A stretch of 42,569 nucleotides of DNA from Thermoanaerobaculia bacterium (GCA_041575955.1 JBFGLX010000001.1:1-42569); one strand, 5' to 3'. Counted from the first letter of the stretch, positions 6,544 to 22,827 are shown. The notes: a model not told the origin generated them from the sequence alone. Numbers and translations are program-made.

Positions 6544-7145
6544 CGCGCGTCGGCCGAGCGCTCGCGCTGGATGCGCCACCGGCCGTCTTCCCAGACCAGG
6601 TCGAGGGTCTTGCGGACGGTGTCGCTGTAGCCGTCGGAACGGTAGTACTGCAGGAACGTGGCCCGGGCGCTACCGCCGCCCAGGAGCTCGGTCTCGAGGC
6701 CGGTGATCGCCACCCGCACGAAGCGGGCCGATGACAGGCGCTCGCGGCGCTGGGCTTCCCAGAGCCGCCGGTTGGCGCCTCCCTCCGGCACGAAGGAGCG
6801 CGAATAGGAGGCGAGGTAGTCTTCGACCCGGCGCTCCGACCAGGCTCCGACCCACTCCTTGACCGACTCGACCAGGGCCCGCTCCGAGCCTCCGGCGGGC
6901 GGCGGCGGCGCGACGGCCCGCCGAGGCTTCGCGGCGGGCGGCGCGGCCTGCCCCGGCGCTCGAGCCGGTGGCGGCGGGGCGGCGGCGGCGCCCGGCGCGG
7001 CTTCGCCGGCCGGCGACGGCGGTCCGACGGCCGCGGCGGCCGGCGGCTCGAGATCCCCCTCGGCGGAACGTTGCCCGAGCCAGACGAGCAGCAGGACGAC
7101 CGCCGCGGCGATCATCAGAAAAGGCAGGGTGAGGCTTCGTCGCAC
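6540..7145 (-). CDS. Membrane-anchored Pro/Ala-rich protein with a C-terminal NTF2/SnoaL-like (Cds6-type) domain
   Basis: 201 aa. It has an N-terminal TM helix (LPFLMIAAAVVLLLVWL), then an about 70-aa P/A-rich linker, then VKEWVGAWSERRVEDYLASYSRSF...ATFLQYYRSDGYSDTVRKTLDLVWEDGRWRIQRE, which is typical of NTF2-like domains. Confidence 0.7.
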   Translation of the reverse strand: MRRSLTLPFLMIAAAVVLLLVWLGQRSAEGDLEPPAAAAVGPPSPAGEAAPGAAAAPPPPARAPGQAAPPAAKPRRAVAPPPPAGGSERALVESVKEWVGAWSERRVEDYLASYSRSFVPEGGANRRLWEAQRRERLSSARFVRVAITGLETELLGGGSARATFLQYYRSDGYSDTVRKTLDLVWEDGRWRIQRERSADAR

Positions 7146-7273: not shown

Positions 7274-7341
7274 GAGCGAAACGCGGCAGATTCAGGTAGT
7301 TGCGGCATTGTGGGCGAAGGTTGGCGAGATGGTCAGGCTAG
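7274..7341. repeat. 68-nt intergenic repeat, copy B (ends on the stop codon of 7338..8726)
   Basis: GAGCGAAACGCGGCAGATTCAGGTAGTTGCGGCATTGTGGGCGAAGGTTGGCGAGATGGTCAGGCTAG. The hairpin is CGCGGC-AGATTCAGGTA-GTTGCG, maintained with G-U pairs on the plus strand. Confidence 0.85.
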
Positions 7342-8726
7342 AGGGTTCCGATGCCCACCGCAGGCACCCCCGCTGCCTGTCTGTCCTTCATTTCCGCCAG
7401 GAACGCGACCAGCGTGCCGAGGACGAGGCCGAGCAGCGCGCCGACCAGCAGGCGGAGCTTCTTGTTCAGGGTGAGCGGATCGCTGCCGACGCGAACCTCC
7501 TGAATCAGGCTGATGTTGGAGATCTTCTCCCGGTCGAGCTGGTCGAGCAGCCGCGCCTCCTCGAGCTGGGCGGCGTAGGTGCGGTAGCTCTTTTCGTTCA
7601 TGTCCCGCTCCCGCACCAGCTCGCGGTACCTCTTGCTGCGCGTCGGCAGGGTGGCCAGCCGCCGTTCCAGCCACGCCATCTGCTCGGCGAGCCCTTCGGC
7701 CTTGGCCATCTCGAAGCTCAGCTCGGCCTCGAGAGCGGTCATCTGTTCGGCCAGCTGGTCGGCGGCGCCACCTCTGCCGATCAGCTCCTCCTGCTCCGCC
7801 AGGAAGCTCTCGATGGTCTTGATCTGCTCGCGCACGGCCGTCACCCGCCGGCTGTTTTCGCTGAAGCTGCCGAGCAGCCGCTTCTCCTCCACCTGCAGGT
7901 CGAGCAGATTCAACCGGGCGTTCTGGATGATCCGGCTCTCCCGGGCCTTGGCCGCGGCCAGGCCGTCGTAGGCGGCCAGCCGCTGCTGTTCGCCCAAGAA
8001 GGCGATCTGCTGCTTGAGCCCGGCAATCCGATTGCTGGACTGGTTGAACTCCGATTCGAGCCCCGCCCGCCGCTCGAGCAGGAGCCGGCCGTGCTCCTCC
8101 AGGTAGAGCGTCTCGTCGGCGAGCACGAAGACCTCCAGCTCTCCCTCGGACTGCTCCAGCCGGTCGCGGAAGTCCGCGACCTTCTCCTCCAGGAACGGCG
8201 GCACGCGCGGGTTGCCGAAGGTCTGGAGGTGCTTCTCCTGGAAGACGTCGACGGCGGTGCTCAGGGCCTGGCCCGCCATTTCGGGATCGGGATGCACGAA
8301 CGTGACCCGGATCACCGACGAGGTGGGCTGGATGCGCGCGGTGAAGGCGGCGGCGAACGCCTCGGCCGCTTCGAGCTGCTTTTCGCTCTCGGTGAGCGCG
8401 CTGTCGGCGAGCGCCGGGTAGAGGCTCTCGGGACCCAGCCTCGCGACCACCGCCTGAATCAGGTCCGAGCTGGTCAGGATGTACAGCTCGGTGTTCAGCG
8501 CCGCCTCGGGGTCCCGGTTGAGCACGGTCGGCCGATCGCCGACGCCCGGCTGGGACCTGTACTCGCGCCCGAGCTGGACCAGCAGGGTGGCCGAGGCCTC
8601 GTACTTCGACGTGCGCGTGAACAGGACGGCGGCGACCGCGAGCACCGTCGCGAGCAGCGTGACCGCGAACGCGAGCCGGTGTCTGAGGACGATTTCAAGG
8701 AGCTGCCTGGGATCGGTGATGGACAT
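7338..8726 (-). CDS. Polysaccharide co-polymerase / chain-length determinant (Wzz/GumC family, no kinase domain)
   Basis: 462 aa. It has an N-terminal TM helix plus the Wzz motif (LLEIVLRHRLAFAVTLLATVLAVAAVLF..YEASATLLV), a long coiled-coil periplasmic region, and a C-terminal TM helix (LRLLVGALLGLVLGTLVAFLAE). Confidence 0.85.
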   Translation of the reverse strand: MSITDPRQLLEIVLRHRLAFAVTLLATVLAVAAVLFTRTSKYEASATLLVQLGREYRSQPGVGDRPTVLNRDPEAALNTELYILTSSDLIQAVVARLGPESLYPALADSALTESEKQLEAAEAFAAAFTARIQPTSSVIRVTFVHPDPEMAGQALSTAVDVFQEKHLQTFGNPRVPPFLEEKVADFRDRLEQSEGELEVFVLADETLYLEEHGRLLLERRAGLESEFNQSSNRIAGLKQQIAFLGEQQRLAAYDGLAAAKARESRIIQNARLNLLDLQVEEKRLLGSFSENSRRVTAVREQIKTIESFLAEQEELIGRGGAADQLAEQMTALEAELSFEMAKAEGLAEQMAWLERRLATLPTRSKRYRELVRERDMNEKSYRTYAAQLEEARLLDQLDREKISNISLIQEVRVGSDPLTLNKKLRLLVGALLGLVLGTLVAFLAEMKDRQAAGVPAVGIGTL

Positions 8727-8879: not shown

Positions 8880-9566
8880 ATGAAGATCAGACGAGTGCCC
8901 TCAATCCTCGTAGTCGCGCTCATCGCGCTGCCGGCGCTCCTGGCGACGAGGTCGGCGACGACCGCGAATCAGGACGGCGACGCCGAGCCGCGGCCCGAGT
9001 ACGTGATCCAGGACGGCGACGCGCTGGGCATCAAGTTCTTCCTCAATCCGGAGCTCAACGAAGAGGTCGTGGTGCGTCCGGACGGTCGCATCTCGCTGCA
9101 GCTGATCTCGGAGGTCGTCGCCGCCGGCCGCACGCCGAGAGAGCTCGGCCGACAGCTCGAGCAGCTCTACTCGAGCGAGCTCGACCGGCCGAGCGTCAGC
9201 GTGATCGTGCGCTCGTTCAGCTCGCAGAGGGTCTACGTGGACGGCGAGGTCAACCAGCCCGGCGAGCTGGAGGTCGTGGGCAGCCTGACCCTGCTGCAGG
9301 CGATCGCGCGCGCGGAGGGGTTCACCGAGCTCGCCAAGGTCCGTCAGCTGATCGTCATCCGGCGCGAGGCCGACGGCCAGCCGCGCACCATCCCGATCGA
9401 CGTTCGTGAGCTGCGCCGGGGCCGGGACCGCGACTTGGCGCTGAAGCCGTTCGACGTCGTCTACGTGCCGCGGACCCGGATCGCCAACGTCAACCAGTGG
9501 ATCGATCAGTACATTCGCAAGAGCATCCCGGTGTCGTTCGGGTTTCGCATCGACGTCGTCAACTGA
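8880..9566 (+). CDS. Polysaccharide export protein (Wza/EpsE-like; Poly_export + SLBB)
   Basis: 228 aa with a signal peptide. Carries YVIQDGDALGIKFF..PELNEEVVVRPDGRISLQLISEVVAAGRTPRELGRQLE and VYVDGEVNQPGELEVVGSLTLLQAIARAEGFTE. Confidence 0.85.
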   Translation: MKIRRVPSILVVALIALPALLATRSATTANQDGDAEPRPEYVIQDGDALGIKFFLNPELNEEVVVRPDGRISLQLISEVVAAGRTPRELGRQLEQLYSSELDRPSVSVIVRSFSSQRVYVDGEVNQPGELEVVGSLTLLQAIARAEGFTELAKVRQLIVIRREADGQPRTIPIDVRELRRGRDRDLALKPFDVVYVPRTRIANVNQWIDQYIRKSIPVSFGFRIDVVN

Positions 9567-9567
9567 T

Positions 9568-10722
9568 TTGACCTCGCTCCAACGCCCGCCGCGAGTGGTC
9601 GGCGTCCTCGCCGGCGACGTCGAGCGCGATGCGGCCGCCCGCATCAAGTACGGCCTGCTGTTCGCGGAGCTCGGCAAGCGCTTTCCCGGGCTCGGCGTCT
9701 TCGACGCCGACCTCAAGGGCGCGTCCCGCCTGCTGGTGGCCCTGCTCTCCTTCCGGCCCGATCGCCGCCGCTGGCGCGAGCTCTTCCACAAGAACCCCGT
9801 CGCCTTTCGCGGCCGGTCGCGGCGCGCCGCGGCCCACCTCGCGGCGCTCGACGGCGATCGGAACGTCGTCCTGCAGGTCGGCGCCCTGCTCGATGCGCGC
9901 CGGCGGGCGCCGTCGCCGCCGAGCGTGATCTACACCGACTACACCGCCCGCCTCTCCGCCCGCCATCCGGAGGCCGGCCGCTCGCCACTGGGGCCGCGCC
10001 GGCGCGAGCGTTGGTTCCGGCTCGAGGAGACGGCCTACCGCCGGGCGACCCACGTCTGCACGCGCAGCGACTTCGTGCGCGCCAACCTGATCGACGAGTA
10101 CGGCCTGGCGCCGGAGCGGATCTCGGTGGTCGGCGGCGGCGTCAATTTCGATCCGCTGCCGGCGACCGGCCGCCGGGCGGGCGGCAACGGCGCCGGCCCG
10201 ACGGCCCTGTTTATCGGCAAGGAGCTGCATCGCAAGGGCGGCGACCTGCTGCTGCAGGCGTTCGCCGAGACCCGGGGCAGCGTCCCCGACGCCCGCTTGC
10301 TGATCGTGACCGGCGATCCGATTCCGTCCGACCTGCCGCTCGCAGGCGTGACCGTCATGCCGCCGGTGTGGGAGCGCGACCGCCTGTCGGCGCTCTACCG
10401 CCAGGCCGACCTGTTCGTGCTGCCGTCGCGCCTGGAGACCTGGGGCGACGTGCTGCTCGAAGCGATGGCGCACGGCCTGCCGTGTCTCGGCGTCGCCGGC
10501 GAGGCGATGGACGAGATCATCGTCCGGGAGCGCACCGGACGGCTGGTGCCGCCCGCCGATCCGGCCGCGCTCGCCGCCGCGCTGATCGAGCTGCTGCCGG
10601 CCGCGGAGCGCCTGCGCAGCTGGGGCAGCGCGGGCCGCGAGCGGGTCGAGGCCGAGTTCACCTGGGCGAAGGTCGCCGACCGCCTGGCGCCGATTCTGGA
10701 GTCGGCGGTGGATTCGAGATGA
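9568..10722 (+). CDS. Glycosyltransferase family 4 (GT-B)
   Basis: 384 aa. Has the GT4 C-terminal signature (LFIGKELHRKGGDLLL..., LFVLPSRLETWGDVLLEAMAHGLPCLG...IVRERTGRLV). The TTG start directly follows the exporter stop. The stop overlaps the next start (ATGA). Confidence 0.85.
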   Translation: MTSLQRPPRVVGVLAGDVERDAAARIKYGLLFAELGKRFPGLGVFDADLKGASRLLVALLSFRPDRRRWRELFHKNPVAFRGRSRRAAAHLAALDGDRNVVLQVGALLDARRRAPSPPSVIYTDYTARLSARHPEAGRSPLGPRRRERWFRLEETAYRRATHVCTRSDFVRANLIDEYGLAPERISVVGGGVNFDPLPATGRRAGGNGAGPTALFIGKELHRKGGDLLLQAFAETRGSVPDARLLIVTGDPIPSDLPLAGVTVMPPVWERDRLSALYRQADLFVLPSRLETWGDVLLEAMAHGLPCLGVAGEAMDEIIVRERTGRLVPPADPAALAAALIELLPAAERLRSWGSAGRERVEAEFTWAKVADRLAPILESAVDSR

Positions 10723-12890
10723 CCAGGGAGCTCTGGTGCACCGTCGGCCCGGCCTCGCGGCTCCCCGGCGTGGTCGAACGTCTGGAGGACCTCGGCGTCT
10801 CGCTGTTCCGCATCAACCTCTCGCACACCGGCGTCGACGAGCTGCCCGGGCTGCTGCGATCGCTGGCCGCCCGAACCAAGGTGCCGCTCTGCCTCGACAC
10901 CGAGGGCGCGCAGGTGCGTACCGGCGACCTGATCGAGCCGACCGTCGAGCTCGAGGAGAACGCCAGCTGCGTGATCCGGTCGGGCGACGGCCCGGGGGAC
11001 GCGGCGAGCTTCTGCCTCAATCCGCACGACGTGGTCGAGCGCCTGGAGGTGGGCGATCTGCTGAGCATCGACTTCAACGCGGCGCTGGTCCAGGTGGTCG
11101 AGCGCGGCCCGGGGACGGCGACGCTGCGGGTGGTCAACGGCGGCCTCATGGGTCGCAACAAGGCGGTGACGCTCATGCGCGAGCTCGCCCTCCCCGCCCT
11201 GACCGTGAAGGACCGCGCCGCCCTGAAGATCGGCGCCGAGCTCGGCCTGCGCCACATCGCGCTGTCGTTCGCCAATCGGCCCGAGGACGTCGACGAGATT
11301 CGCGCGGTCTTCGGCCGGCCGGCGTTCGTGATCTCGAAGATCGAGTGCGTGCGGGCGTTGCGCAACCTGGACGCCATCATCAAGCGCTCCGACGCGATCG
11401 TCATCGACCGCGGCGACCTGTCGCGCGAGGTGCCGATCGAGCGCATCCCGAGGCTCCAGAAGCGCATCACGGCACGCGCCCGGGAGCTCGGCAGCAAGGT
11501 CTACGTCGCCACCAATCTGCTCGAGACGATGGTCACCTCGCCGCAGCCGACCCGCGCCGAGGTGAACGACGTGTTCAACACCCTGGCCGACGGCGCCGAC
11601 GGCCTGGTCCTGGCGGCGGAGACCGCCGTCGGCGAGTTTCCGATCCAGTGCGCCAGCATGATCCGGGCGCTCATGTACGAGTTCGAGTCGGAGAATGGAG
11701 CGAGCGGCTCGCCGGGCGTTTCGGACGATCCGTTCTCGCTCCTGGTGGAGCCGCACGGCGGGCGCCTGGTGCAGCGGCAGCTCGCGCCCGAAGCGCTCGA
11801 CGACCTCGACCGGCTCCCCCGGCTGGCGGTCGGGCTGCTCGACCTGCTCGAGGTCGAGCAGATCGCGACCGGCACCTACTCGCCGATCGCCGGATTCATG
11901 ACCCGAGCGACCCTGGAAAGCGTTCTGGCCGGCAACCGGCTGCCGGACGGAACCCTCTGGACCATGCCGATCGTCCTTCAGGTCGGGGCCCGCGAGGCCG
12001 GCCGCCTCGCCGCCGGCGACCGGGTCGGCCTGACCGGCGAGGACGGCACGCTGCACGCGCTGCTCGACGTCGCCGAGGTCTACCGGGTCGACCTGGAGCA
12101 GGCGGCGAGACAGTGGTTCGGCACCACCAGCCGCGCCCATCCCGGAGTCGCGCGCCTGATCGATCGCGGCGACACCTTCGTCGGCGGTGGGGTCACGCTC
12201 GTTCAGCGCCTACCGTCGCCCTATCGCCTGTTCACGCTCACGCCGGCCCAGACGCGCCTGGTCTTCGCCCACAAGGGGTGGAGCCGCGTGCTCGGCTTCC
12301 ACACCCGCAACGTCTGCCACCGGGTGCACGAGTTCATCCAGCTCCGGGCGCTCGCCGAGACGCACTCCGACGGCCTGTTCATCAGCCCGGTGATCGGGCC
12401 CAAGAAGGAGGGCGACTTCCTGCCCGGGCCGATCATGCGCAGCTACGAGGTGCTGCTGGGCGGCGGCGACGTCTACCCGCCGGGCAAGGTGGTGCTCGGC
12501 AGCTTCGCCACGTTCTCCCGCTACGCCGGTCCGCGCGAGGCGGTGTTCACCGCCCTCTGCCGCAAGAACATGGGCTGCAGCCACTTCATCCTCGGCCGCG
12601 ATCACACCGGCGTCGGCGACTTCTACCCCGCCGACGCGAACCGCCGGCTGTTCGAGCAGCTTGGCGATCTCGGGATCACGCCCGTCTTCAGCGAAGCGGT
12701 CGGCTACCACCCGCCGAGCCGCAGCTACCGGACGCTCGGCAGCGCCGGCACGCTCGAGCCGATCAGCGGCACCCGGATGCGCCAGGCGCTGCGCAACGGC
12801 GACGAGCTGCCCGACTGGTTCATCCGCACCTCCATCCAGGAGATGCTGCGCGCCGAGATCGCGGCCGGCCGGCCGGTCTTCGTCTCCTGA
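10719..12890 (+). CDS. Fusion protein: pyruvate-kinase-like A/B barrel (N-terminal) + ATP sulfurylase / sulfate adenylyltransferase (C-terminal)
   Basis: 723 aa from the ATG at 10719 (ATGA overlap with the upstream gene). PK motifs: RINLSHTG, LDTEGAQVRTG, ISKIE, DRGDLSREV, ATNLLETMV..PTRAEVNDV..GADGLVLAAETAVG. ATP sulfurylase motifs: EPHGGRL, YSPIAGFM, FHTRNVCHRVHE, GRDHTGVG. The 708-nt 5' extension in the track (10011..) is Arg-rich shadow sequence. Confidence 0.85.
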   Translation: MTRELWCTVGPASRLPGVVERLEDLGVSLFRINLSHTGVDELPGLLRSLAARTKVPLCLDTEGAQVRTGDLIEPTVELEENASCVIRSGDGPGDAASFCLNPHDVVERLEVGDLLSIDFNAALVQVVERGPGTATLRVVNGGLMGRNKAVTLMRELALPALTVKDRAALKIGAELGLRHIALSFANRPEDVDEIRAVFGRPAFVISKIECVRALRNLDAIIKRSDAIVIDRGDLSREVPIERIPRLQKRITARARELGSKVYVATNLLETMVTSPQPTRAEVNDVFNTLADGADGLVLAAETAVGEFPIQCASMIRALMYEFESENGASGSPGVSDDPFSLLVEPHGGRLVQRQLAPEALDDLDRLPRLAVGLLDLLEVEQIATGTYSPIAGFMTRATLESVLAGNRLPDGTLWTMPIVLQVGAREAGRLAAGDRVGLTGEDGTLHALLDVAEVYRVDLEQAARQWFGTTSRAHPGVARLIDRGDTFVGGGVTLVQRLPSPYRLFTLTPAQTRLVFAHKGWSRVLGFHTRNVCHRVHEFIQLRALAETHSDGLFISPVIGPKKEGDFLPGPIMRSYEVLLGGGDVYPPGKVVLGSFATFSRYAGPREAVFTALCRKNMGCSHFILGRDHTGVGDFYPADANRRLFEQLGDLGITPVFSEAVGYHPPSRSYRTLGSAGTLEPISGTRMRQALRNGDELPDWFIRTSIQEMLRAEIAAGRPVFVS

Positions 12891-12906: not shown

Positions 12907-14412
12907 ATGCCCGCCAGCAAGCAGGAGATCGCGCACGCGACGGTCAGCGGGGTGGCCTGGATCTACCTCGCCTTCGCCCTGGGCAAGGGCCTGGTGTTCG
13001 TCAGCACGATCATCCTGGCCCGGCTGCTGGTGCCGGCCGATTTCGGGCTGCTGGCGCTCGGGCTCCTGGCGGTGGGAATTCTGGACGGCCTGCGGGGACT
13101 GGGCGTCGGCGCGGCGCTGATCTACCGCAAGGAGGATCCCGAGCGCGCCGCCTCGGTCGCCTTCTTCATCAGCCTCGCCGTGGGAGGGGCGCTGACCCTC
13201 GCCGTCCTGCTCGGGGCGCCCCTGGCCGGCTCCTTCTTCCAGGAGCCGCGGGTCGTGCCGGTGCTGCGCGCGCTGTCGGTGAGCTTCCTGTTGTCGGCCC
13301 TGACCAGCGTGCCCGCCGCCCTGATCAGGAAGCAGCTCGCCTTCCGGCGCCGCATCGTCCCGGAGCTCGGCAAGACCGCCGCCAAGGGCCTGGTCTCGGT
13401 GCTGCTGGCGCTCGCCGGCTTCGGGGTGTGGAGCCTGGTCGGCGGTCAGCTCGCCGGCGCCGCCGCCTCGACGCTCCTCTACTGGCGGGTCTGCCGTTGG
13501 CGGCCGCGGCTCGGGTTCGATCGCGGCATCGCGCGCGAGCTGCTCGGCTACGGCGGCCAGATCGTGCTGATCGCCGTCCTCGGCCTGGTGCTCAAGAACG
13601 TCGACTACCTGATGATCGGACGCCGCCTGGAAGCGAGCCAGCTCGGCTACTACACGATCGCCTTCCGGATACCCGACCTGTTCATCGTCAGCCTCTGCGC
13701 GATCGTCAGCCAGGCCCTCTTCCCGGCCTTCGCCAAGCTGCGCGACGACGTCGCGGCCCTGCGCCGGGGCTTCCTCGCGGCCGAGCGCTACACCGCGCTG
13801 ATCACGCTCCCGGTGGGCCTCGGCACGGCGATCGTCGCGCCCTACTTCGTCGAGGTCTTCTACACCATCCGCTGGGCGCCGGCCATCCCGGTCATGCAAT
13901 CGCTCGCCATCTACTCGCTCCTCCAATCGCTGAGCTACAACGCCGGCGACGTCTACAAGGCGATCGGCCGGCCGGGGTTCCTCAACTACTTTGGCAGCAT
14001 CAGGCTCGCGGTCACCCTGCCGGTGCTGTGGATCGCCGCCGGCGAGGGCATCCACTGGGTCGCGCTGGGGCAGGTCGCGATCGCGCTCGCGTTCAGCGCC
14101 GCTCAGCTGGTCATGGTCTGCCGGCTGCTGGGCGTCCGCGCGGCGGCGCTCCTGAACAGCCTGCGCCCGGCCGCGGTCGCGGCGGCGGTCATGGCCGCGG
14201 CCACGCTCGGGCTCGACCGGGTCCTGACCCTCGGACCCGCCCCGAGGCTGGCGGCGATCTCGCTTGCCGGCGCCCTGGTCTACGTCCTCACGCTGCAGCT
14301 CACGCATCCCGAGGCGATCGCGGATGCGGTCGCCCTGCTTCGCCGCCGGAAGGAGCGGCGCGAAGACGATCTCGAGAAAGACCTGGCGCCGGACGAGGAC
14401 TCCTACCACTAG
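12907..14412 (+). CDS. Polysaccharide flippase (Wzx / MOP superfamily)
   Basis: 501 aa from the ATG at 12907. It begins MPASKQEIAHATVSGVAWIYLAFALGKGLVFVSTIILARLLVPADFG, the typical Wzx N-terminus. About 12 TM segments. High GC3. Confidence 0.8.
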   Translation: MPASKQEIAHATVSGVAWIYLAFALGKGLVFVSTIILARLLVPADFGLLALGLLAVGILDGLRGLGVGAALIYRKEDPERAASVAFFISLAVGGALTLAVLLGAPLAGSFFQEPRVVPVLRALSVSFLLSALTSVPAALIRKQLAFRRRIVPELGKTAAKGLVSVLLALAGFGVWSLVGGQLAGAAASTLLYWRVCRWRPRLGFDRGIARELLGYGGQIVLIAVLGLVLKNVDYLMIGRRLEASQLGYYTIAFRIPDLFIVSLCAIVSQALFPAFAKLRDDVAALRRGFLAAERYTALITLPVGLGTAIVAPYFVEVFYTIRWAPAIPVMQSLAIYSLLQSLSYNAGDVYKAIGRPGFLNYFGSIRLAVTLPVLWIAAGEGIHWVALGQVAIALAFSAAQLVMVCRLLGVRAAALLNSLRPAAVAAAVMAAATLGLDRVLTLGPAPRLAAISLAGALVYVLTLQLTHPEAIADAVALLRRRKERREDDLEKDLAPDEDSYH

Positions 14413-15388
14413 CCTGACCGCTGGTGCCGCCGGTGGCGACGTAGCGCTCGTCGAGCCGCGCCTGGAGGGCGCCGCACAGCTCGGCGATCCTCGGGTCGGC
14501 CCCCGGCCACGGGTGGCGGCCGACCGAGGTGGCGAAGATCTGCCCGATCACCTCGGGATGGTAGGGGAAGCCGAGGAAATCGAGCACCCGGCGAAACGCC
14601 GCCTCGGAGTTGAGGACCGCGTCCTCGTACTGCAGCAACAGCACGCGCGGATCGCGGTCGAGGCCGAGCTCGAAGTAGATCGAGTTGCGCAGGTACCAAT
14701 AGAGGCAGCCGCCGTCCTCGTTCGTGAGATCCTCTCGGAAGAGCTCGCCGAAGAGACGGCGGCTGTCGGCGCTGACGCCCTCGGCGCGCGGGCCGAGGGG
14801 GGCCAGATCGCCGCTGGCCACGGCGCGCGCCAGGTCCTTCTGATGCGCGCCCCAGCGGCGGACCGAGGAGCTCGCGGCGTCCTCGCAACGCCGGTACACC
14901 CAGATCGCCCTGGCGCCGTCGAAGCGCGCCAGCAGTCGATCGCAGCGCTGCGAATCGAGAATGCAGCCGAAGCTCACGATCGGCGCCGGGGCGAGGCGGA
15001 TCAGCCGCTCGATGAAGCGGTCGGGCCGCAGGTAGAAGCCGTCGAACGCGACGCTGCTCCCCTCCCAGTAGTCCCAACCGTGCGGGGAGTCCCCCAGGGC
15101 CCGGCACACCATCTGCGACCCGGAGCGGTTGGAGCCATGGATGAAGACCGGAAACCTCGTGGTGCTCGGGTGCACGGCCAGCCGGCGGGCGAGCCCCTTG
15201 CGGCGCCGCGCCAGGAAGCGGCGGCCGTGGCGCAGCAGGCGCCGGAAACTGAACCGCTCGAGACGCCGCAGCCAGATGCCCGCGATCGAAGCGATCTCCC
15301 CAGCCGTCGCGCGCACCGGGCGCCTGACCTGGCGGCTCAGGACCCTGCCGCCGCGGCCGCCGAGACGCCGTCGGACGGGCCCGGGCAC
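14300..15388 (-). CDS. Sulfotransferase family protein
   Basis: Has a PAPS 5'-phosphosulfate-binding-loop-like motif (FIHGSNRSGSQMV) and a C-terminal RVLLLQYEDAVLNSEAAFRRVLDFLGFPYHPEV. The start is uncertain: ATG 15388 overlaps the upstream gene, and GTG 15316 is an alternative. The last about 35 codons overlap the 3' end of the flippase gene. Confidence 0.7.
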   Translation of the reverse strand: MPGPVRRRLGGRGGRVLSRQVRRPVRATAGEIASIAGIWLRRLERFSFRRLLRHGRRFLARRRKGLARRLAVHPSTTRFPVFIHGSNRSGSQMVCRALGDSPHGWDYWEGSSVAFDGFYLRPDRFIERLIRLAPAPIVSFGCILDSQRCDRLLARFDGARAIWVYRRCEDAASSSVRRWGAHQKDLARAVASGDLAPLGPRAEGVSADSRRLFGELFREDLTNEDGGCLYWYLRNSIYFELGLDRDPRVLLLQYEDAVLNSEAAFRRVLDFLGFPYHPEVIGQIFATSVGRHPWPGADPRIAELCGALQARLDERYVATGGTSGQASGRSPRPAPGLSRDRLRAAPSGGEAGRPHPRSPRDA

Positions 15389-16740
15389 GGCCCGCTGGCG
15401 CGCCGGCGCTCGACCTTGGCGGCCATGCAGTGGAGGAGCTCCTCCAGGTTGGTGTAGCCGTCGCCGTCGTCGTCGTCCGCCGGCCTCGCGGGCAGCTGCA
15501 GCGGCCGCCGGGTCGGCCGGACCTCACCGAGTCCGCCGACCTCCGCCGGAGAATCGATCATCCCGCCCTGGCCCCGGCGGACGTTTGCGACGATGCGCCG
15601 GTCGACGCGGTCGCGGTCCGCGGGGCGGGCGCCCGAAGTCCTCAGCACCTGGCGCTTCGCCTTGCGGGCGCTGACGATCGTGAGCGGCCAGAGCTCGACC
15701 GGTGGCGTCTCGCTCCGGATGTTCTTCCCGGGCCGATTGTCGACCACCGACCAGGGGTCGCGGGTCTGGTACGGGCCGGTGTTGTCGGCGACGTAGAGAC
15801 GCGTCGCGGGGTCGGCGTTGGTGACCACCACCGTCTTGATGTCGGATCGCGAGTCGCGGCCCGGCAGGTAGACGTTGCCGATGGCGGTCAGCCAGCTCGG
15901 TCCCTCGTCGCCTCCCATGTCGACGGCGCGGTGCCGAACGTTGTAGATCAGGTTGTTCACCACCAGGCCGCTGGAGTCCGCGGAGAAGCGTGGATTGCGG
16001 GCGCCGTTGTGGGCAAACAGGTTGCGCACCACCGCGATCCGCCGGGAGTGCTTTCCCGCCAGCATGCCCATCGAGTGATCGCCCTGGGGATGCAGCGAAT
16101 CGTCCAGACCTTCGGCGATGATGCCGCGGCTCATGGTGACGTCGTAGACGTTGTCGAACCAGATGCTCACGTTCTCGTCGATCGCCCAGCTCACCGAGCA
16201 GTGATCGAAGAAGACGTTGAACGTGTCGAAGCTCCCGCGCCGGTTCGTCGCCGCCCCGAGACCATCCCGGTACTCGGGCTCGCTGTTGGCGCGGCCGTCG
16301 CCGACCCGCACGCGCACGTGCTGGAGCAGGACGTCGTGCGTCTTGATCCGGAGCGTATCGCCGGCCAGGGTGATCCCGGGAGTCGGGGCGGTCTGACCCG
16401 CCACGGTAAGAAACGGCTCCGCGACCTCGATGTTGTCGCGCAGGCGGATCACGCCGCCGACCTCGAAGATGACCGTGCGCGGCCCGCGCGACCCGAGCGC
16501 CGCCCGCAGCGAGCCCGGTCCCGAGTCGTCGAGATTGGTGACCCGTAGAATCCGGCCGCCGCGACCCGCGGCGGTCAGGCTCCCGAAGCCCTCCGCCCCG
16601 GGAAAGACCGGCAGCCCGCCGCGGTAGTCACGCACGGAGTCTTCGAGCGGCGGACCGGCTGCGGCCGGCGGCGCCCCGACCGCGGCCAGGGCGACGCCGA
16701 GCATCCACACGAGGCGTATCGCTGCACGGAGCTGCCGCAT
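15337..16740 (-). CDS. Secreted pectate-lyase-fold (PL1-like right-handed beta-helix) polysaccharide lyase
   Basis: 467 aa with a signal peptide. Carries GFGSLTAAGRGGRILRVTNLDDSGPGSLRAAL, TVAGQTAPTPGITL, HCSVSWAIDENVS, FAHNGARNPRF, and a C-terminal DDDDGDGYTNLEELL Ca-binding-type motif. Confidence 0.8.
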   Translation of the reverse strand: MRQLRAAIRLVWMLGVALAAVGAPPAAAGPPLEDSVRDYRGGLPVFPGAEGFGSLTAAGRGGRILRVTNLDDSGPGSLRAALGSRGPRTVIFEVGGVIRLRDNIEVAEPFLTVAGQTAPTPGITLAGDTLRIKTHDVLLQHVRVRVGDGRANSEPEYRDGLGAATNRRGSFDTFNVFFDHCSVSWAIDENVSIWFDNVYDVTMSRGIIAEGLDDSLHPQGDHSMGMLAGKHSRRIAVVRNLFAHNGARNPRFSADSSGLVVNNLIYNVRHRAVDMGGDEGPSWLTAIGNVYLPGRDSRSDIKTVVVTNADPATRLYVADNTGPYQTRDPWSVVDNRPGKNIRSETPPVELWPLTIVSARKAKRQVLRTSGARPADRDRVDRRIVANVRRGQGGMIDSPAEVGGLGEVRPTRRPLQLPARPADDDDGDGYTNLEELLHCMAAKVERRRASGPCPGPSDGVSAAAAAGS

Positions 16741-16756
16741 GACGTCGGTTTTCAGT

Positions 16757-17899
16757 CTACGCCAGGTTCGCTCCGGCCGCTTGCCGCAGGAGCAGGCTTT
16801 CCCATTCGTCGATCATCCGCTCGATCGTGAATGCCGCCTCGACGCGCTCCCTGGCGGCGGCCCCGACACGGGCCCGGAGATCTTCGTCGCCGAGCAGGCG
16901 AGCGACCTGCTCGGCCAGCGCCTCGAGGTCGCCGGCTTCGACCAGAAAACCGCTCACGCCGTGCTCGATCGCTTCGCCGACGCCATCCACCGCGGTCGCC
17001 ACCACGGCGCGTCCCGAGGCCATGGCCTCGAGGATTGCCACCGGCAGGCCTTCCCAGTAGGAGGTCGAGACATAGACGTCGAACGCGGCGAGCATCGCCG
17101 GCACGTCGGACTGCCAGGGTGCGGCGATCAAGCTGCCGCCGAGGTCCAGCTTCGCGGCCAGGGCGCGCACCTCGGACTCCAGCGGCCCTTCACCCGCCAT
17201 GAAGACCTGCACCCCGGGGGCGGCCCGCACGACCCGCTCCGCGACGCGCAGGAAGTCGAAGGGCGCCTTCTGTCGATTGAGGCGCCCCGCCCACCCGACC
17301 ACCGGCCGCCCGGGCTCGAGCCCGAGGGCCCGGCACGCCGCGGCCCTGTCCATCGGCCGATCGAAGCCGCTCAGATCGAGGCCGGTGTGAATCATCGATA
17401 TCCTGGATGCGGGCGCGATCCGATTCCTCCGCAGCTCCTCGCGCATCGAGTGGGCGGTCGCGACGATATGGCCCCCGACCCAGGCGCCGATCCGCTCCAG
17501 CTGGCGGTAGAGCGACGCCCGCCGGCCCTGGACGCGCTCCAGGAAGGGCATGGAGTGCAAGGCGTAGACCGTCGGCGTGCCGGTCAGCCGGCCCACCAGC
17601 CGCGTCACCAGGCCGGCCTTCGCCCCGTGAGCGAGGATCAGATCGGGGCGCTCCTTGCGGACGTGGCGCAAGAGCCTGGCGACAAGACCGAGATCGGAGA
17701 GCGGAGCGATCGAATAGCGCTCCATCTCCATGCGCACGGTTTGGATGCCGCTCTCTTCCAGCGCCCGGGCGTAGGCCTCGTTGCCCTGGGACAGGCAGAC
17801 CACGCTCACCGCGTGACCCCGGGCGCTCAACTGCTCGCACAGGCTGCGGTTGATCGCCGCCACCCCGCCGGTGGACTTGGTCACGCTCATCAGACGCAT
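16757..17899 (-). CDS. Glycosyltransferase family 4
   Basis: 380 aa from the ATG at 17899 (MRLMSVTKSTGGVAAINRSL...). Carries the ...STSYWEGLPVAILEAMASGRAVVATAVDGVGEAIEHGVSGFLV signature. Confidence 0.85.
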   Translation of the reverse strand: MRLMSVTKSTGGVAAINRSLCEQLSARGHAVSVVCLSQGNEAYARALEESGIQTVRMEMERYSIAPLSDLGLVARLLRHVRKERPDLILAHGAKAGLVTRLVGRLTGTPTVYALHSMPFLERVQGRRASLYRQLERIGAWVGGHIVATAHSMREELRRNRIAPASRISMIHTGLDLSGFDRPMDRAAACRALGLEPGRPVVGWAGRLNRQKAPFDFLRVAERVVRAAPGVQVFMAGEGPLESEVRALAAKLDLGGSLIAAPWQSDVPAMLAAFDVYVSTSYWEGLPVAILEAMASGRAVVATAVDGVGEAIEHGVSGFLVEAGDLEALAEQVARLLGDEDLRARVGAAARERVEAAFTIERMIDEWESLLLRQAAGANLA

Positions 17900-19014
17900 T
17901 CGCGCGCCTCTCCGGTTTGAAGACTCCGGTAGACGTCCAGGATCCGCTCGTGCATCGTCTCTTCGCTGTAGCTCTCGCGCACGGTCGCGGCCGCCCGGGC
18001 CCCGAGCCGGGCGGCCTCTCGCGGGTCGCCCAGGAGCCTCAGCAGACCCCGGCTCAGCGCCTCCGGGTCGCCCGGAGCGACCACCACTCCGGTGCGCCCG
18101 TCCTCGAGCAGGCTCCGGACCCCGCCGACCGCGGTGCAGACGAGAGGCTTGGCCATGGCCATCGCCTCCAGCAAGGTCAGGGGCAGGCCCTCCCACAACG
18201 AGGACGAGACGACCACATCGAGCGCCGCCAGAGTCGCGGGGACATCGCGCGAGATGCCGGCGAACACGACGTGCTCCTCGAGCCCCAGACGTGCCCGCTG
18301 GGCCTCGAGCTCGGGCCGCAGCGGGCCGTCGCCCACGATCACGAAGCGCGCCCCGGGCATCTCCCGCACGACGATCGCCGCCGCCTCGAGCAGTACGTGA
18401 TGGCCCTTCTGCGGCTCGAGGCGGCCGACGATGCCGATGGCCGGGTCGCCGGGCTCCAGCCCCCAGAGGGTCGTCTTGTCCGCCGGCACGACCCGCTCCG
18501 GGTCGAACCTCTCCAGGTCGATGCCGTTGTCGATCGAGACGATCTTCTCCGCCGGGTAGGTGCCGGTCTCGACCAGAAACTCCCCGGCCTCGCGCGAGAC
18601 CGCGATCACCTTCTGGCACCGGCGGGTGCAGACCCGGTGAATGAGGGTCAGCAGCTTGTTCCGCCGCCAGGGGTCTTCGTTGTGGATCGAGGAGACCCGC
18701 ACCCGGGTGCCCGCGATCGCGGCCGCCGGTTGGCCCAGCAGATCGCTCTTGCGCAGGTGGGTGTGAACGACCTCGGGGCGTTCCCGCCTGAGGAGGGCGA
18801 GCAGGCGGAAGAGGGCCCGGGGATCCGCCAGACCCCGCCGGCTGATGCGATGCACCGGCACCCCGAGCTCCGTCAGCTCGTCGTGGAGCGGGCCCTCAGA
18901 GAAGTACGCCACCTGGATCTGATGATCCAGCCGGAGATACCTCCGCACCATGGCCAGGAGTAGCATCTCGGCGCCCCCGATCTTGAGGCTGTCTATGACG
19001 TAGAAGATCCGCAT
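17890..19014 (-). CDS. Glycosyltransferase family 4
   Basis: 374 aa from the ATG at 19014 (MRIFYVIDSLKIGGAEMLLL...). Carries SSSLWEGLPLTLLEAMAMAKPLVCTAVGGVRSLLEDGRTGVVV. Overlaps the downstream GT4 by 10 nt. Confidence 0.85.
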   Translation of the reverse strand: MRIFYVIDSLKIGGAEMLLLAMVRRYLRLDHQIQVAYFSEGPLHDELTELGVPVHRISRRGLADPRALFRLLALLRRERPEVVHTHLRKSDLLGQPAAAIAGTRVRVSSIHNEDPWRRNKLLTLIHRVCTRRCQKVIAVSREAGEFLVETGTYPAEKIVSIDNGIDLERFDPERVVPADKTTLWGLEPGDPAIGIVGRLEPQKGHHVLLEAAAIVVREMPGARFVIVGDGPLRPELEAQRARLGLEEHVVFAGISRDVPATLAALDVVVSSSLWEGLPLTLLEAMAMAKPLVCTAVGGVRSLLEDGRTGVVVAPGDPEALSRGLLRLLGDPREAARLGARAAATVRESYSEETMHERILDVYRSLQTGEARECV

Positions 19015-20192
19015 GTCCGGCCCGGCGCGGCCACGATAACCTGTCGGTAGAGTTCCGGAAAGCGGGCCGCCACGACCGGCAGAGAGTAGCGCGACGCGAC
19101 CCGCTCGCGGGCCCGAAGGCCGACCGCGGCCCTCCGTTGCGGCTCGTTCAGGGCCGCCAGGACAGCCCGTCTCAGCGCCTCCGGCTCGCCCGCGGGAATC
19201 AGCCAGCCATTCTCGCCCGGATCGATCAGCTCGGGACCCGCGCCCACGGCGGTAGCCACGCACGCCAGCCCCGCGGACATCGCTTCGAGGAGCGCGTTCG
19301 AAAGGCCCTCGGCGGACGAGGGCAGCACGAACAGGTCTGCGGCCTGCAGGTAGGGGGCCACATCGAGCACCGGGCCGGGCAGAGACACTCCCTCGCCGGC
19401 GGCCCGAGCCAGGCTGGCCGCCTGGTCACCCGAGCCGACCAGCACGAGCTGCGCTCCCGGGCAGCCGGCGCGCACCGCCGGCCAGATGCCGACCAGGTCG
19501 TGCAGCCGCTTCTCCGGTGCCAGCCGTCCCGTGTAGACCACGATCGGGCCCTCGGGCAGATCGAGAGCGCTCCGGAGCGCGGCCTTGCGATCGGGCGCCA
19601 GCGGGGCGAAACGCCCGGTGTCCACCGCGTTGGGGATCGAGATCCGCCGCTCCGGCGGCACGCCTGCGGCGTCGAGCTCGGCATCGATCTCGCGACTGAT
19701 GACGACGAACCTGTCCACGCCCCGGCGCAGCCACGCGATCCGGCGGTGGCCGAGGAACCTGCCGCGCAGCCTCGCGAGGTCGCCCAGATGGCCGCCGCGC
19801 GGCACCTTGACGACCACCGGGGTGCCGAAGATCCGCTTCGCCACCAGCGCCGTGGTCGACGGGGAATAGAGATCGTGGGCATGCAGCACGTCCGGCCGCA
19901 ACCGCCTCAACAGGCGCAAGGCGGCCACCGTGAAGGTGAGCGACTTGACGGCTTTGGGCCCGGTGGCGGGCAGGCGGTGAACCGAGACGCCCTCGATGTT
20001 CTCCTGGGGCGCGAGGCCGGGGAAGCGCCGGGTCAGGACGTCGACCCTCAGACCCCGGGCCACGAGCGCCGGCGCCACTGCCGCCAGCTGACGCTCGGCC
20101 CCACCGACCACCGGGTAGTATCCGTTGATCAGCATCGCGACCCGGATCGGCTCGCCACCGGACGGCCGCTCGGCCCGGGCGTCGCCGGTCAC
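18993..20192 (-). CDS. Glycosyltransferase family 4
   Basis: 399 aa from the GTG at 20192 (GTGA overlap with the upstream stop). Carries IRVAMLINGYYPVVGGAERQL and LFVLPSSAEGLSNALLEAMSAGLACVATAVGAGPELIDPGENGWLI. A later start near VAMLING is possible. Confidence 0.8.
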   Translation of the reverse strand: MTGDARAERPSGGEPIRVAMLINGYYPVVGGAERQLAAVAPALVARGLRVDVLTRRFPGLAPQENIEGVSVHRLPATGPKAVKSLTFTVAALRLLRRLRPDVLHAHDLYSPSTTALVAKRIFGTPVVVKVPRGGHLGDLARLRGRFLGHRRIAWLRRGVDRFVVISREIDAELDAAGVPPERRISIPNAVDTGRFAPLAPDRKAALRSALDLPEGPIVVYTGRLAPEKRLHDLVGIWPAVRAGCPGAQLVLVGSGDQAASLARAAGEGVSLPGPVLDVAPYLQAADLFVLPSSAEGLSNALLEAMSAGLACVATAVGAGPELIDPGENGWLIPAGEPEALRRAVLAALNEPQRRAAVGLRARERVASRYSLPVVAARFPELYRQVIVAAPGRTCGSSTS

Positions 20193-21325
20193 CCTGGTCC
20201 ACTCCGCCGCTCGGACCGCCGGCCGCCGCCGCACGCGACCTCCCGGGCCAGCTCGAGCAGCCGGTCGGCCCATCTGTCGGGACCGTAGTTGCGGGCCACG
20301 TGGCGCCGCGCCGCGGCGCCCATCGCCACCGCTCCCGCCCGATCGTCGAGCACCGATCGCAGGGCTTCGGCCAGGGCGCGGGGCCGCCCCGGCTCGACCA
20401 GCAGACCGGTACCCTCCGCCACCACCTGCGGCAGATCGCCGACGGCGGTTGCCACCACCGGCAGCCCGGCCGCCATCCCCTCGAGAACGCTGAGCGGCAG
20501 CCCCTCCCAGAGGGAGCTGCTGACGTAGACGTCGACCGCCGCCAGCAGCCTGGGCACGTCACCGCGGACCCCCAGAAGATGGGCGTGACCGGCCAGGCCG
20601 GAGGCTTCGATCTGCGCCGCGAGCTCGCCGGCCCGGGGGCCACCACCGGCGATCACGAGCGCCGCGCCGGGGTGGGTCAGGCGGAGCTCGCCGAAGGCCG
20701 TCAGCAGATCGTCGAACGCCTTCTGACGCCGCAGCATGCCGGTGGACATGACAATGAAGTCCTTGCCGTCGCCCGCCAGCTCGCGGCGGATCGAGCACCG
20801 CTCGGCCTCGGCCAAAAGCGGGATCGGCGCCACCGGATTCGGGATCTCGATCGGGCGCCTGCCGCCGAGGCGCTCCTGATGCGCCTCGGCGACCGCACGT
20901 CCGACGGCCACCACCCGGCGCGACAGACGCCGCAGCGTCCAGGACTCGAGCGCGCCGCGCAATCGGTTGGGCGGCGGAGCCTCGCTGTGCAGGGTCGAGA
21001 TCGCCGGCGTGCCGGCGAGGGCCGCGGCGATCGGCCCCAGGATGTTGGCCGTCGACAGGTGCGTGAACAGGACGTCGAAGCGCTCCCGGCGCAAGAGCCG
21101 GACCAGACTGACCAGCTGCCGCGGATCGGACAGGCTGGCGCTCCCAAGGGTCACCAGCCGGGCGTCGAGCGCCGCCAGCTCGCGGAAGATCTCCGGGTAC
21201 CGGGGCGGCTTCAGACCCACGATCGTCACCTCCACGCCGCGCTCCCGGGCCGCGCGGGCGAAGAGCACTTGCAGCTTCTCGGCGCCGCCTACGGTCAGGG
21301 AGTCGATCAGCTGGACGATGCGCAT
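20189..21325 (-). CDS. Glycosyltransferase family 4
   Basis: 378 aa from the ATG at 21325 (MRIVQLIDSLTVGGAEKLQVLF...). Carries SSSLWEGLPLSVLEGMAAGLPVVATAVGDLPQVVAEGTGLLV. Confidence 0.85.
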   Translation of the reverse strand: MRIVQLIDSLTVGGAEKLQVLFARAARERGVEVTIVGLKPPRYPEIFRELAALDARLVTLGSASLSDPRQLVSLVRLLRRERFDVLFTHLSTANILGPIAAALAGTPAISTLHSEAPPPNRLRGALESWTLRRLSRRVVAVGRAVAEAHQERLGGRRPIEIPNPVAPIPLLAEAERCSIRRELAGDGKDFIVMSTGMLRRQKAFDDLLTAFGELRLTHPGAALVIAGGGPRAGELAAQIEASGLAGHAHLLGVRGDVPRLLAAVDVYVSSSLWEGLPLSVLEGMAAGLPVVATAVGDLPQVVAEGTGLLVEPGRPRALAEALRSVLDDRAGAVAMGAAARRHVARNYGPDRWADRLLELAREVACGGGRRSERRSGPG

Positions 21326-21432
21326 CGAGGCGTAGGCGCCGGAAACCACGGGTCCGGGCGCCCCGCTCGAGAGCATAGCCGGCGCCGGGACGCGACGCCG
21401 TTAGAGACGCCGCTGCGCGCCGCCGGGTCGGA

Positions 21433-22827
21433 TCAGCAGCCTCCCTTACGGCCCAGCACCACGCTCGCGGTGCGGTAGAGGATCCACATGTCCAGAAACA
21501 GGTTGCGCCGCTCGATGTAGGAGATGTCGATACGCGCCCGCTGCTCGAAGTCCGACGAGCCGCGACCATTGATCTGCCACAGGCCGGTGAGGCCGGGCGG
21601 CACCGTCAGGCGCGCCTTCTGCCACAAGGTGTAGGTCTCGTCGGAGAAGGATGTGGGGCGAGGCCCGACCAGGCTCATCTCGCCGCGCACGACGTTCAGC
21701 AGCTGCGGCAGCTCGTCGAGGCTGGTCTCGCGCAGGAAGCGGCCTACGCGGGTGACGCGCGGATCCTCCTTCAGCTTGAAGTCGGGCCACGGCATCTCGC
21801 TCTGCGGGCGCAGCTCGGCCTTGAGCTCCTCGGCCTCCGGCACCATGGTCCTGAACTTGAACAACTGAAAGCGCCGTCCCCACCTGCCGACGCGAGTCTG
21901 CTGGAACAGAACCGGCCCACCGGGCGAGCTCACCTTGATGGCGATCGCGATCAGCGCGAAGACGGCGAGCCACAGGGGCGCGAACAGACCGACCACGAGC
22001 AGGTCGAACGCCCGCTTCGCTACCCAGCCGGCGCGCTCGTTGAGCGACGGCTCCGCCAGCGCGCTCGGGTCCCAGGCGACGCTGCCGCCGGTGAGCCGCG
22101 GGCCGCGGTGCGGCCGCGAGCGCTTTACCTCGGCCTCGATCGAGCGCCGCCTCGCGGACGCCTTCTCGAGCTCGGTGAACGGCATCTCCAGCTGACCGGT
22201 CTCGCCGAGGCGCTCGGGCGGCATCAGGCTCGACTCGGCGAGCTGCACCAACTGTCGCAGGCTGAGGGCCTGGTCGGGGAACGTCGCCACCCCGAGCTGG
22301 GCCTCGATGCCGAGCTGGCGGCTCAGCGCCAGGGCGATCTTCTTCGCCACTCTGACGGCGTTCTTCCAGCCGGTTTCCGGGCAGAGCAGAATCAGCCTGT
22401 GGGGCTCTTCGCCGGCGATCGTCAGGTCGCTGCGCCGGGTCGAGTCGGCGGCCACCTTCGCCGCCCAGCTCAGGGCGTAGGAGCCCAGGTACCGGCGGCT
22501 GGTCTCGAGCCTCACCTCTTTGAGCTGCGCCGCGAGCGACTCTTCGTCGATCTCGACGACGATGCAGCTCAGCGGGCGCTCGTGACGGGAGGCGAGGAGG
22601 AACTGCTGCGCGGCCGGGTCGACAGCCGGAGGCGCCGCCGCGGCTCCGAGGCCCCGCACTCGATTCCCGTGATGCGCCGGCTGCACCGCGCCCGCGAGCC
22701 GCACCAGGCGCAGCGACGCATCCGACTCGTCAGTCGTCCGTCGATCGACTGGCGAGCGCCGATCCATTCCGGTCCGGAAGAGCAAATCCACTGAAACGAG
22801 GTTAAGGAGCGTCGCGATTCCTGTCAA
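21433..22827 (-). CDS. Priming polyprenyl-phosphate sugar-phosphate transferase (bacterial sugar transferase, WbaP/EpsB-like) with an N-terminal degenerate GGDEF-like module
   Basis: The C-terminal 200 aa read [95 protein letters not shown]. The start is uncertain: TTG 22827 in the track, or ATG 22767. Confidence 0.85.

Follow-up and report, generated by a model that had tools for sequence, protein, structure and literature searches.

A pyruvate kinase barrel fused to ATP sulfurylase, encoded in a bacterial exopolysaccharide locus and shared by a widespread protein family

A two-module protein with a probable role in sulfate activation

In a 42,569-nucleotide stretch from a Thermoanaerobaculia bacterium (GCA_041575955.1, JBFGLX010000001.1:1-42569; the whole stretch is called the window below), one gene encodes a protein that joins a pyruvate kinase (PK) barrel to an ATP sulfurylase (ATPS). 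The gene lies inside a Wzx/Wzy-type exopolysaccharide (EPS) locus, as judged from Pfam annotation of the called genes, and its product very probably serves sulfate activation for polysaccharide sulfation. The fusion is a widespread, uncharacterised variant of the theme of sulfate activation and of the synthases that make 3'-phosphoadenosine 5'-phosphosulfate (PAPS). Because canonical kinases of adenosine 5'-phosphosulfate (APS) accompany it as operon neighbours and in three fusion orders, the PK barrel joins ATPS and APS kinase as a third member and does not replace the kinase. Judged from sequence, the best fit for its role is the supply of ATP driven by phosphoenolpyruvate (PEP) together with the recycling of ADP, a reading in which our confidence is about evenly balanced.

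Sulfate activation is the thermodynamically weakest link of sulfation and sulfate-assimilation pathways, a problem that is known to be solved by GTP hydrolysis in CysDN, by fusion to APS kinase in the PAPS synthases or by fusion to pyrophosphatase. Placed on ATPS, on APS kinase or on both, a PK barrel would constitute a further solution, one in which PAPS production is tied to PEP, a central carbon-status metabolite.

The gene and its domains are as follows; nucleotide positions are those of the window.

10719..12890, + strand: whole fusion gene, 723-aa PK-barrel/PUA_2/ATP-sulfurylase protein (uninterrupted open reading frame (ORF), Pfam domains, GC content at third codon positions 0.95)
10731..11648 (aa 5-310), + strand: PK A/B barrel, no C-terminal allosteric domain (Pfam PF00224, E 1.2e-59)
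11697..11762 (aa 327-348), + strand: inter-module linker, predicted disordered, with AlphaFold2 (AF2) per-residue confidence (pLDDT) <50 and variable family-consensus columns
11748..12209 (aa 344-497), + strand: PUA-like N-domain of ATP sulfurylase (Pfam PF14306, PUA_2, E 1.7e-40)
12231..12854 (aa 505-712), + strand: ATP-sulfurylase catalytic domain (Pfam PF01747, E 1.1e-59) with HTRN, H534xxH537 and GRDHTG

Translation of 10719-12890 (+) yields 723 residues and then a stop, with zero internal stops. The start codon overlaps the stop of the upstream glycosyltransferase gene (ATGA at 10719-10722), and homologues begin at the same residue. The GC content of the three codon positions (0.71/0.47/0.95) is typical of genuine genes in this 71% GC window and differs from that of shadow ORFs in other frames. 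The Pfam match to PK spans profile positions 6-326 of 328, no Pfam match to the PK_C domain (PF02887) was obtained in the fusion protein, and the linker leads directly into the ATPS module. These results bear out what the first-pass annotation had described, namely a single unbroken 723-aa frame with two complete modules, a PK that is missing its C-terminal allosteric domain, and a set of quoted motifs, all of which are present in the translation; the domain borders, for which it had proposed a check by hidden Markov model (HMM), are those given above.

Curated NCBIfam models recognize both halves of the protein below their cutoffs. All PK models do so (TIGR01064 at 242.2 against 306.4 bits), as do the sulfate adenylyltransferase models (NF003166 at 337.5 against 387 bits and TIGR00339 at 295 against 322.95 bits), and no curated NCBIfam family covers the fusion protein.

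The PK module keeps the catalytic residues of pyruvate kinase

The PK module and the A and B domains of pyruvate kinases of known structure align over their whole length. Its best PDB sequence match is the Pseudomonas aeruginosa enzyme 7oo1 (E 1.3e-57, aa 5-325), and Foldseek places the AF2 model on PKM2/M1 with a root mean square deviation of 2.2-3.0 Å over ~341 columns. Both Pfam and superposition of the AF2 model show the (beta/alpha)8 barrel of the A-domain with the B-domain lid inserted into it.

Residue conservation was examined in an alignment of 81 family members. R31, N33, S35, H36, D60, R67, K148, K207, E209, D233, T265 and E301, which correspond in rabbit numbering to R72, N74, S76, H77, D112, R119, K206, K269, E271, D295, T327 and E363, are invariant in 81/81, and this set covers the phosphoryl, PEP/oxalate, Mg2+, K+ and nucleotide-phosphate sites. 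The same residues are also invariant in proteins that join PK to APS kinase (APSK) and in variants with a decayed ATPS, and the PK signature motifs are identical in five aligned architectures and in the differently ordered protein P0293. A proper alignment might have exposed a barrel stripped of PK catalytic residues, a prospect that the first-pass annotation had raised against its own proposal; instead, the alignment shows all of them present and kept throughout the family.

The ATPS module resembles Sat-type enzymes

The closest PDB sequence matches of the ATPS module are 8a8d (E 6.5e-77) and 1v47 (E 1.1e-70), to which its Foldseek template modelling scores are 0.90 and 0.85, respectively. 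The HxxH motif (H534, H537), R530, N531 and GRDHTG are present in the window protein and conserved in the family. The glutamine of the QxRN motif is replaced by His528 (HTRN) in 80 of the 81 members. The ATPS active-site motifs do differ between family members, judging by their sequences, since P0073 from Methyloversatilis has HGRN in place of the HTRN of the window protein and GRNHAG in place of its GRDHTG.

A large family with several architectures

When one genome per species was scanned, the PK-ATPS fusion proved to be encoded in 504 species genomes, which belong to many phyla. Carriers include Mesorhizobium, Ensifer/Sinorhizobium (on megaplasmids), Methyloversatilis, many Rhodospirillales, Caldilineaceae and Acidimicrobiia, and further Gemmatimonadota, Planctomycetota, Verrucomicrobiota, Omnitrophota and others. 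At least 50 full-length clusters exist at 50% identity, an exhaustive search of the 50%-identity representatives recovered full-length members down to ~36% identity, and the best 120 clusters at 90% identity all possess the same three domains end to end. Annotation pipelines name the fusion ‘pyruvate kinase’, ‘sulfate adenylyltransferase’ or ‘ATP sulfurylase’. Full-length plasmid matches were found on Sinorhizobium chiapasense pA and in Ensifer adhaerens; the PLSDB tables list no annotated feature at either, and in the Ensifer adhaerens plasmid record the whole 26-kb region is without annotated features.

Targeted full-text literature searches returned no paper that describes a PK-ATPS fusion; the matches use PK only as a coupling enzyme. 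The pairing had been presented in the first-pass annotation as a non-standard architecture. As an oddity of this locus that description fails, given a large and old family in 504 species genomes, and it stands in so far as the fusion is uncharacterised in the literature searched; the converse possibility, that of an already characterised and common enzyme class, is accordingly correct as to common and incorrect as to characterised. Culturable Mesorhizobium, Ensifer/Sinorhizobium and Methyloversatilis are among the carriers. Characterisation would mend annotations and help to predict which bacteria make sulfated polysaccharides, and the fusion could be of use in biocatalytic sulfation as a compact enzyme that generates PAPS at the expense of PEP.

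The PK barrel also recurs in other combinations. Triple fusions in the order PK-PUA_2-ATPS-APS_kinase are represented by P0145, P0148 and P0160 (904-930 aa) in three separate 50% clusters, the order APSK-PK-ATPS is found in P0293, and PK-APS_kinase proteins form five 90% clusters, the two examined members of which both lie in polysaccharide loci. In P0173, a complete PK that keeps PK_C is joined to ATPS; P0199 reads Phosphodiesterase-PK-ATPS and P0221 PK-CBS. Barrels of the same PK subfamily also stand alone, at 330-360 aa. In P0206 (L089:8001-9584) and P0219, the PK motifs are intact and only a decayed ATPS remnant persists, from which PUA_2, HTRN/HxxH and GRDH are lost; the P0206 gene lies immediately upstream of a Sulfotransfer_3 gene.

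One PK-APS_kinase protein, encoded in an Omnitrophota metagenome-assembled genome (MAG; L086:599-10288), is found among genes for GAPDH-like, 2-hydroxyacid dehydrogenase, HAD phosphatase, CTP_transf_3 and CDP-alcohol phosphotransferase proteins. ATP sulfurylase and sulfotransferase genes are not present within 8 kb, and a CDP-linked compound may be the substrate of the APS-kinase-like domain there.

APS kinase: absent from the window, present beside many homologues

No PF01583 APS kinase was detected by Pfam among the 35 called genes of the 42.5-kb window, a profile built from 30-odd CysC neighbours of homologues found no APS kinase in the six-frame translation of the window, and a motif scan found no Walker-A motif in its called proteins. 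On the strength of these three scans, the idea of a cysC gene hidden in the window is rejected.

We surveyed 80 related fusion loci with flanks of up to 10 kb, clustering all ORFs and annotating the conserved neighbours. In 31 of the 80, the fusion stop and the start of a canonical APS kinase gene are a few bases apart (a representative neighbour matches PF01583 at E 8.6e-41), and five further loci carry one within 6 kb; canonical cysC is absent within the available flanks in the remaining 44. The remark that there is no APS kinase in sight therefore describes the 42.5-kb window correctly and cannot be generalised, the kinase being encoded directly downstream in 31/80 loci and fused in relatives. 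A Sulfotransfer_3 gene directly adjoins the fusion in 22 loci, mostly those without cysC; L068 is the one exception among the 22, with a linked cysC as well. In P0007, which is 64% identical to the window protein, the operon runs from the fusion to APS_kinase to Sulfotransfer_3 within a polysaccharide cluster. Together, the APS kinase and Sulfotransfer_3 neighbours and the P0007 operon tie the family firmly to PAPS-dependent sulfation. In the 81-member alignment, no column divides the members linked to cysC from those without it, and hence nothing points to a subfamily in which the barrel stands in for the kinase.

Several conserved neighbours were recorded alongside. A ~510-aa protein, c16, which carries a P-loop domain resembling dTMP kinase at its C-terminus and has no match in Pfam or the PDB, occurs in 14/80 fusion loci and in 0/36 of the loci carrying cysC (L007, L015, L022, L025, L027, L038, L043, L048, L055, L064, L067, L071, L078 and L080; for example L027:13557-15086 (+)). 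This protein might be a non-orthologous kinase for the sulfation pathway. Its likeness to APS kinase, and that of a second candidate, the conserved P-loop protein c10, is limited to the P-loop (46 and 34 hhalign columns, respectively, with no PDB or Pfam matches).

In Mesorhizobium and Ensifer/Sinorhizobium (L028, L033, L035-L037, L050, L051, L054, L057, L060, L063 and L073), the fusion and cysC are part of a conserved block at locus coordinates of ~6.4-16.4 kb. This block also comprises an O-antigen-ligase-like membrane protein, c10, a beta-helix protein, a Na+/H+ exchanger, a PqqD/HPr-kinase-like protein and an NTP_transf_5 nucleotidyltransferase. The rhizobial fusion loci showed no Sulfotransfer_3 gene.

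In a marine lineage (L090/L091:15190-21227), the genes downstream of the fusion encode PPDK_N/PEP-utilizers, a GATase, an NTP_transferase, a sulfatase-family protein and an APS-kinase homologue. This cassette appears to resemble the O-methyl-phosphoramidate (MeOPN) genes Cj1415-Cj1418 of Campylobacter jejuni.

A model for the fusion and the alternatives to it

Taken together, a model for the window protein can be proposed. The gene would encode the sulfate-activating enzyme of a Wzx/Wzy-type EPS sulfation pathway, in which the C-terminal Sat-type ATPS would convert ATP and sulfate to APS and a separately encoded APS kinase, the gene for which is not in the 42.5-kb window, would convert APS to PAPS for the sulfotransferase of the locus. 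The N-terminal barrel is predicted to be a catalytically competent pyruvate kinase that lacks the allosteric and tetramerisation C-domain; with PEP as phosphate donor, it most likely converts the ADP released by APS kinase back to ATP. The result would be a high ATP and low ADP level at the enzymes of sulfate activation, with the net conversion of sulfate, ATP and PEP to PAPS, pyrophosphate (PPi) and pyruvate. PK, ATPS and APS kinase have no metabolites in common other than ATP and ADP, which makes PEP-driven ATP supply and ADP removal the most economical reading; PK makes the ATP that both of the others consume and takes up the ADP that APS kinase releases. The first-pass annotation had already offered PEP-driven ATP regeneration as one of its two inferences, and this would fit the data as a whole. 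What the sequences show directly is the domain composition, intact residues at the active site, linkage of the genes to those for APS kinase and sulfotransferases, and several orders of fusion; PK activity, the use of ADP as the acceptor and any physical coupling between the modules are inferred.

Several observations weigh against this proposal. First, the family has a signature of its own near the PK active site, in which K114 is replaced by E, E117 by Q, Q328 by N and S361 by A (rabbit numbering), all four invariant. In the numbering of the window protein, the monovalent-cation positions of the family read T(S)61/E62/Q65/T68, and E62 and Q65 do not vary. A published study assigns T113/K114/E117/T120 to K+-dependent PK and L113/Q114/K117/(L,I,V)120 to K+-independent PK (PMC8835810), and the T/E/Q/T of the fusion family matches neither of the two signatures. 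The signature substitutions could mark an altered substrate or mechanism. Second, the AF2 model of the fusion (predicted template modelling score 0.68) contains no confident inter-domain interface and no reliable inter-domain geometry. Third, ATP sulfurylase produces no ADP, and a PK tethered to ATPS rather than to APS kinase is not an obvious design for ADP recycling; cytoplasmic ATP, moreover, is normally not limiting, so that a benefit under selection is not evident. Fourth, the barrel kept with a degenerate ATPS beside a sulfotransferase hints at a function narrower than a general provision of ATP. Lastly, some of the ‘APS_kinase’ neighbours are part of the MeOPN-like cassette and not of sulfate activation. 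In the Omnitrophota locus L086, the APS-kinase-type enzyme is still an ATP-consuming, ADP-releasing 3'-kinase, and the logic of ADP recycling holds there as well.

One alternative is that the barrel is a non-catalytic regulatory or scaffold module, which gates ATPS by carbon status through the binding of PEP, pyruvate or a nucleotide, or which provides an oligomerisation interface, as the C-domain resembling APS kinase does in fungal ATPS. There is a precedent in the Penicillium ATPS (1i2d), where a catalytically silent kinase-like domain regulates the sulfurylase, and this enzyme was matched by both sequence and Foldseek; the loss of the PK allosteric domain is in keeping with the idea, and the PK-CBS variant P0221 suggests regulatory contexts. 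Pseudo-enzymes usually lose some catalytic residues, however, and those of the barrel are all invariant down to ~40% identity and in every architecture, among them the general acid T327 and K269, which would not be needed for ligand binding alone. We consider a purely regulatory barrel unlikely.

Similarly doubtful is a bolder proposal, that the barrel is a dedicated third catalytic component of PEP-coupled sulfate activation, an analogue of CysN that drives APS formation and that in cysC-less genomes could phosphorylate APS. Were this true, a new enzyme specificity would be marked by E114/Q117/N328/A361 and by barrels that persist next to sulfotransferases although their ATPS part has decayed.

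The barrel could also run a different PEP-dependent reaction, through energetic coupling to APS formation in the manner of CysN in CysDN or through the use of a nucleotide other than ADP. The equilibrium of the ATPS reaction is very unfavourable, and elsewhere the problem is met with CysN, with pyrophosphatase or with fusions to APS kinase; the invariant E114/Q117/N328/A361 are unlike known PKs, and the barrel persists with a dead ATPS remnant beside a sulfotransferase. Against such a reaction, we know of no chemical precedent for it, the ADP-binding residues are unchanged, and the flexible linker, modelled at low confidence, argues against tight conformational coupling. This reading appears quite improbable to us.

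The first-pass annotation had also suggested that the PK-like barrel was recruited as the APS 3'-kinase. With PEP or ATP as the donor, PAPS would in that case come from the fusion by itself, without CysC, in agreement with the lack of an APS kinase or any P-loop kinase in the 42.5-kb window, the 44/80 loci in which no canonical cysC was seen, and the active-site-proximal substitutions particular to the family. Three lines of evidence make this very unlikely: i) where a canonical APS kinase is encoded directly downstream (31/80 loci) or in cis (the triple fusions and PK-APSK), the barrel would be redundant, ii) cysC-linked and cysC-less members cannot be told apart at any alignment column, and iii) the nucleotide-phosphate ligands R72, R119 and K206 are unchanged, and their geometry in PK sets the terminal phosphate, not the ribose 3'-OH, beside PEP. 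A cysC gene could, in addition, sit elsewhere in the genome.

Finally, that a sequencing error joined two adjacent genes during assembly or annotation, for which only the general possibility inherent in any MAG speaks, can be set aside as having practically no likelihood: an independent NCBI MAG contig (GCA_041576855.1) encodes the identical protein (100%), GCA_041612995.1 has an 87%-identical protein with the same flanking genes, and the architecture recurs, with all three domains in each of the best 120 clusters, across 504 species genomes that include finished chromosomes and plasmids. A missed stop, frameshift or chimera at the module junction, against which the first-pass annotation had cautioned, is thus excluded for practical purposes by the uninterrupted ORF and its recurrence in independent assemblies and in hundreds of genomes.

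Comparison with known systems

The PUA-like and catalytic domains of the Sat-type ATPS enzymes from Methanothermococcus thermolithotrophicus (8A8D) and Thermus thermophilus (1V47) align end to end with the fusion, and HxxH, the RN of QxRN and GRDHxG are common to them. Relative to these enzymes, the fusion adds a 330-aa N-terminal PK barrel, replaces the Gln of QTRN by His in all but one of the 81 members and scores below the NCBIfam cutoffs.

With pyruvate kinases (the second isozyme of P. aeruginosa, 7OO1, and the rabbit and human M1/M2 enzymes), the fusion shares the A-domain TIM barrel, the B-domain lid and all catalytic, metal and nucleotide ligands, at ~30-40% identity to the PKs in the PDB. 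In contrast to them, it is without the C-terminal alpha/beta domain that provides allostery and the C-C tetramer interface, possesses the T/E/Q/T cation signature, Q328N and S361A, and remains below all NCBIfam PK cutoffs.

PAPS synthases (Aquifex aeolicus 2GKS, human PAPSS1/2) gather sulfate-activation enzymes in one chain, as does the fusion, and P0145, P0148 and P0160 are in effect such ATPS-APSK fusions with a PK barrel in front. The window protein differs in that it has no APS kinase domain and that its partner is a predicted PEP-dependent kinase barrel.

The GTPase-coupled CysDN and NodPQ embody the same functional idea, that of a second nucleotide or energy module placed on sulfate activation, and NodPQ in rhizobia serves sulfation and not assimilation. 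The folds are unrelated, CysD being a PP-loop ATPase and CysN an EF-Tu-like GTPase, and no homology to the fusion was detected. The fungal ATPS enzymes (Penicillium 1I2D, yeast 1G8F), which were recovered as sequence and Foldseek matches, likewise combine an ATPS core with a kinase-derived accessory domain. The fungal domain is C-terminal, of the P-loop type and catalytically dead, whereas that of the fusion is N-terminal, a TIM barrel and, as predicted from its residues, has an intact active site.

The exopolysaccharide locus around the fusion gene

The neighbouring genes of the window are as follows.

4886-6346, + strand: Wzy-like polymerase (Pfam)
6540-7115, - strand: unrelated small gene (Pfam scan)
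7338-8726, - strand: Wzz chain-length protein (Pfam)
8880-9566, + strand: Wza-like exporter (Pfam)
9568..10722, + strand: GT4 glycosyltransferase upstream of the fusion (Glyco_trans_1_4, E 3e-25), with stop/start overlap
12907..14412, + strand: Wzx-type polysaccharide flippase (Polysacc_synt_3, E 1.3e-72), 17 bp downstream of the fusion gene
14300..15388, - strand: sulfotransferase-like gene (Sulfotransfer_3, E 2.2e-8, a weak partial match)
15337..22704, - strand: rest of the EPS locus, comprising a PelZ-like lyase, four GT4 and a priming Bac_transf sugar transferase
21433-22704, - strand: the priming sugar transferase (Bac_transf; Pfam)

The GT4, fusion and Wzx genes form one operon beside the sulfotransferase-like gene. 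As would befit a sulfation locus, the fusion is ringed by Wzy, Wzz, Wza-like and Wzx genes, five GT4 genes, the priming transferase and the weakly matched Sulfotransfer_3-like gene, so that its reported position among genes of polysaccharide assembly and export is upheld. The sulfotransferase, too, was located where it had been noted, its stop ~1.4 kb downstream of the fusion stop, on the strength of the weak match listed above. The translated gene contains a loop, GSNRSGSQ, that resembles the 5'-phosphosulfate-binding loop (5'-PSB), and a profile of family-linked sulfotransferases matches the protein at E 3.6e-4; it is the presumed PAPS consumer.

The PelZ-like pectate lyase at 15337-16710 (-) matches NCBIfam NF041900 at E 8.5e-82 and 275 bits, far below the 840-bit cutoff, and is probably the EPS locus's own polysaccharide lyase. 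Upstream of the Wzy gene and beside recQ, the window encodes a 486-aa protein with no family match (2890-4350 (+)), in which two internal repeats of ~170 aa, each beginning near ‘...QKHP...’, are followed by a proline-rich stretch of ~40 aa. Further downstream, the gene calls at 22947-24980 (+) and 24444-25727 (-), the latter of which encodes a protein with no significant family match, overlap by ~540 bp, and one start or end is probably wrong.

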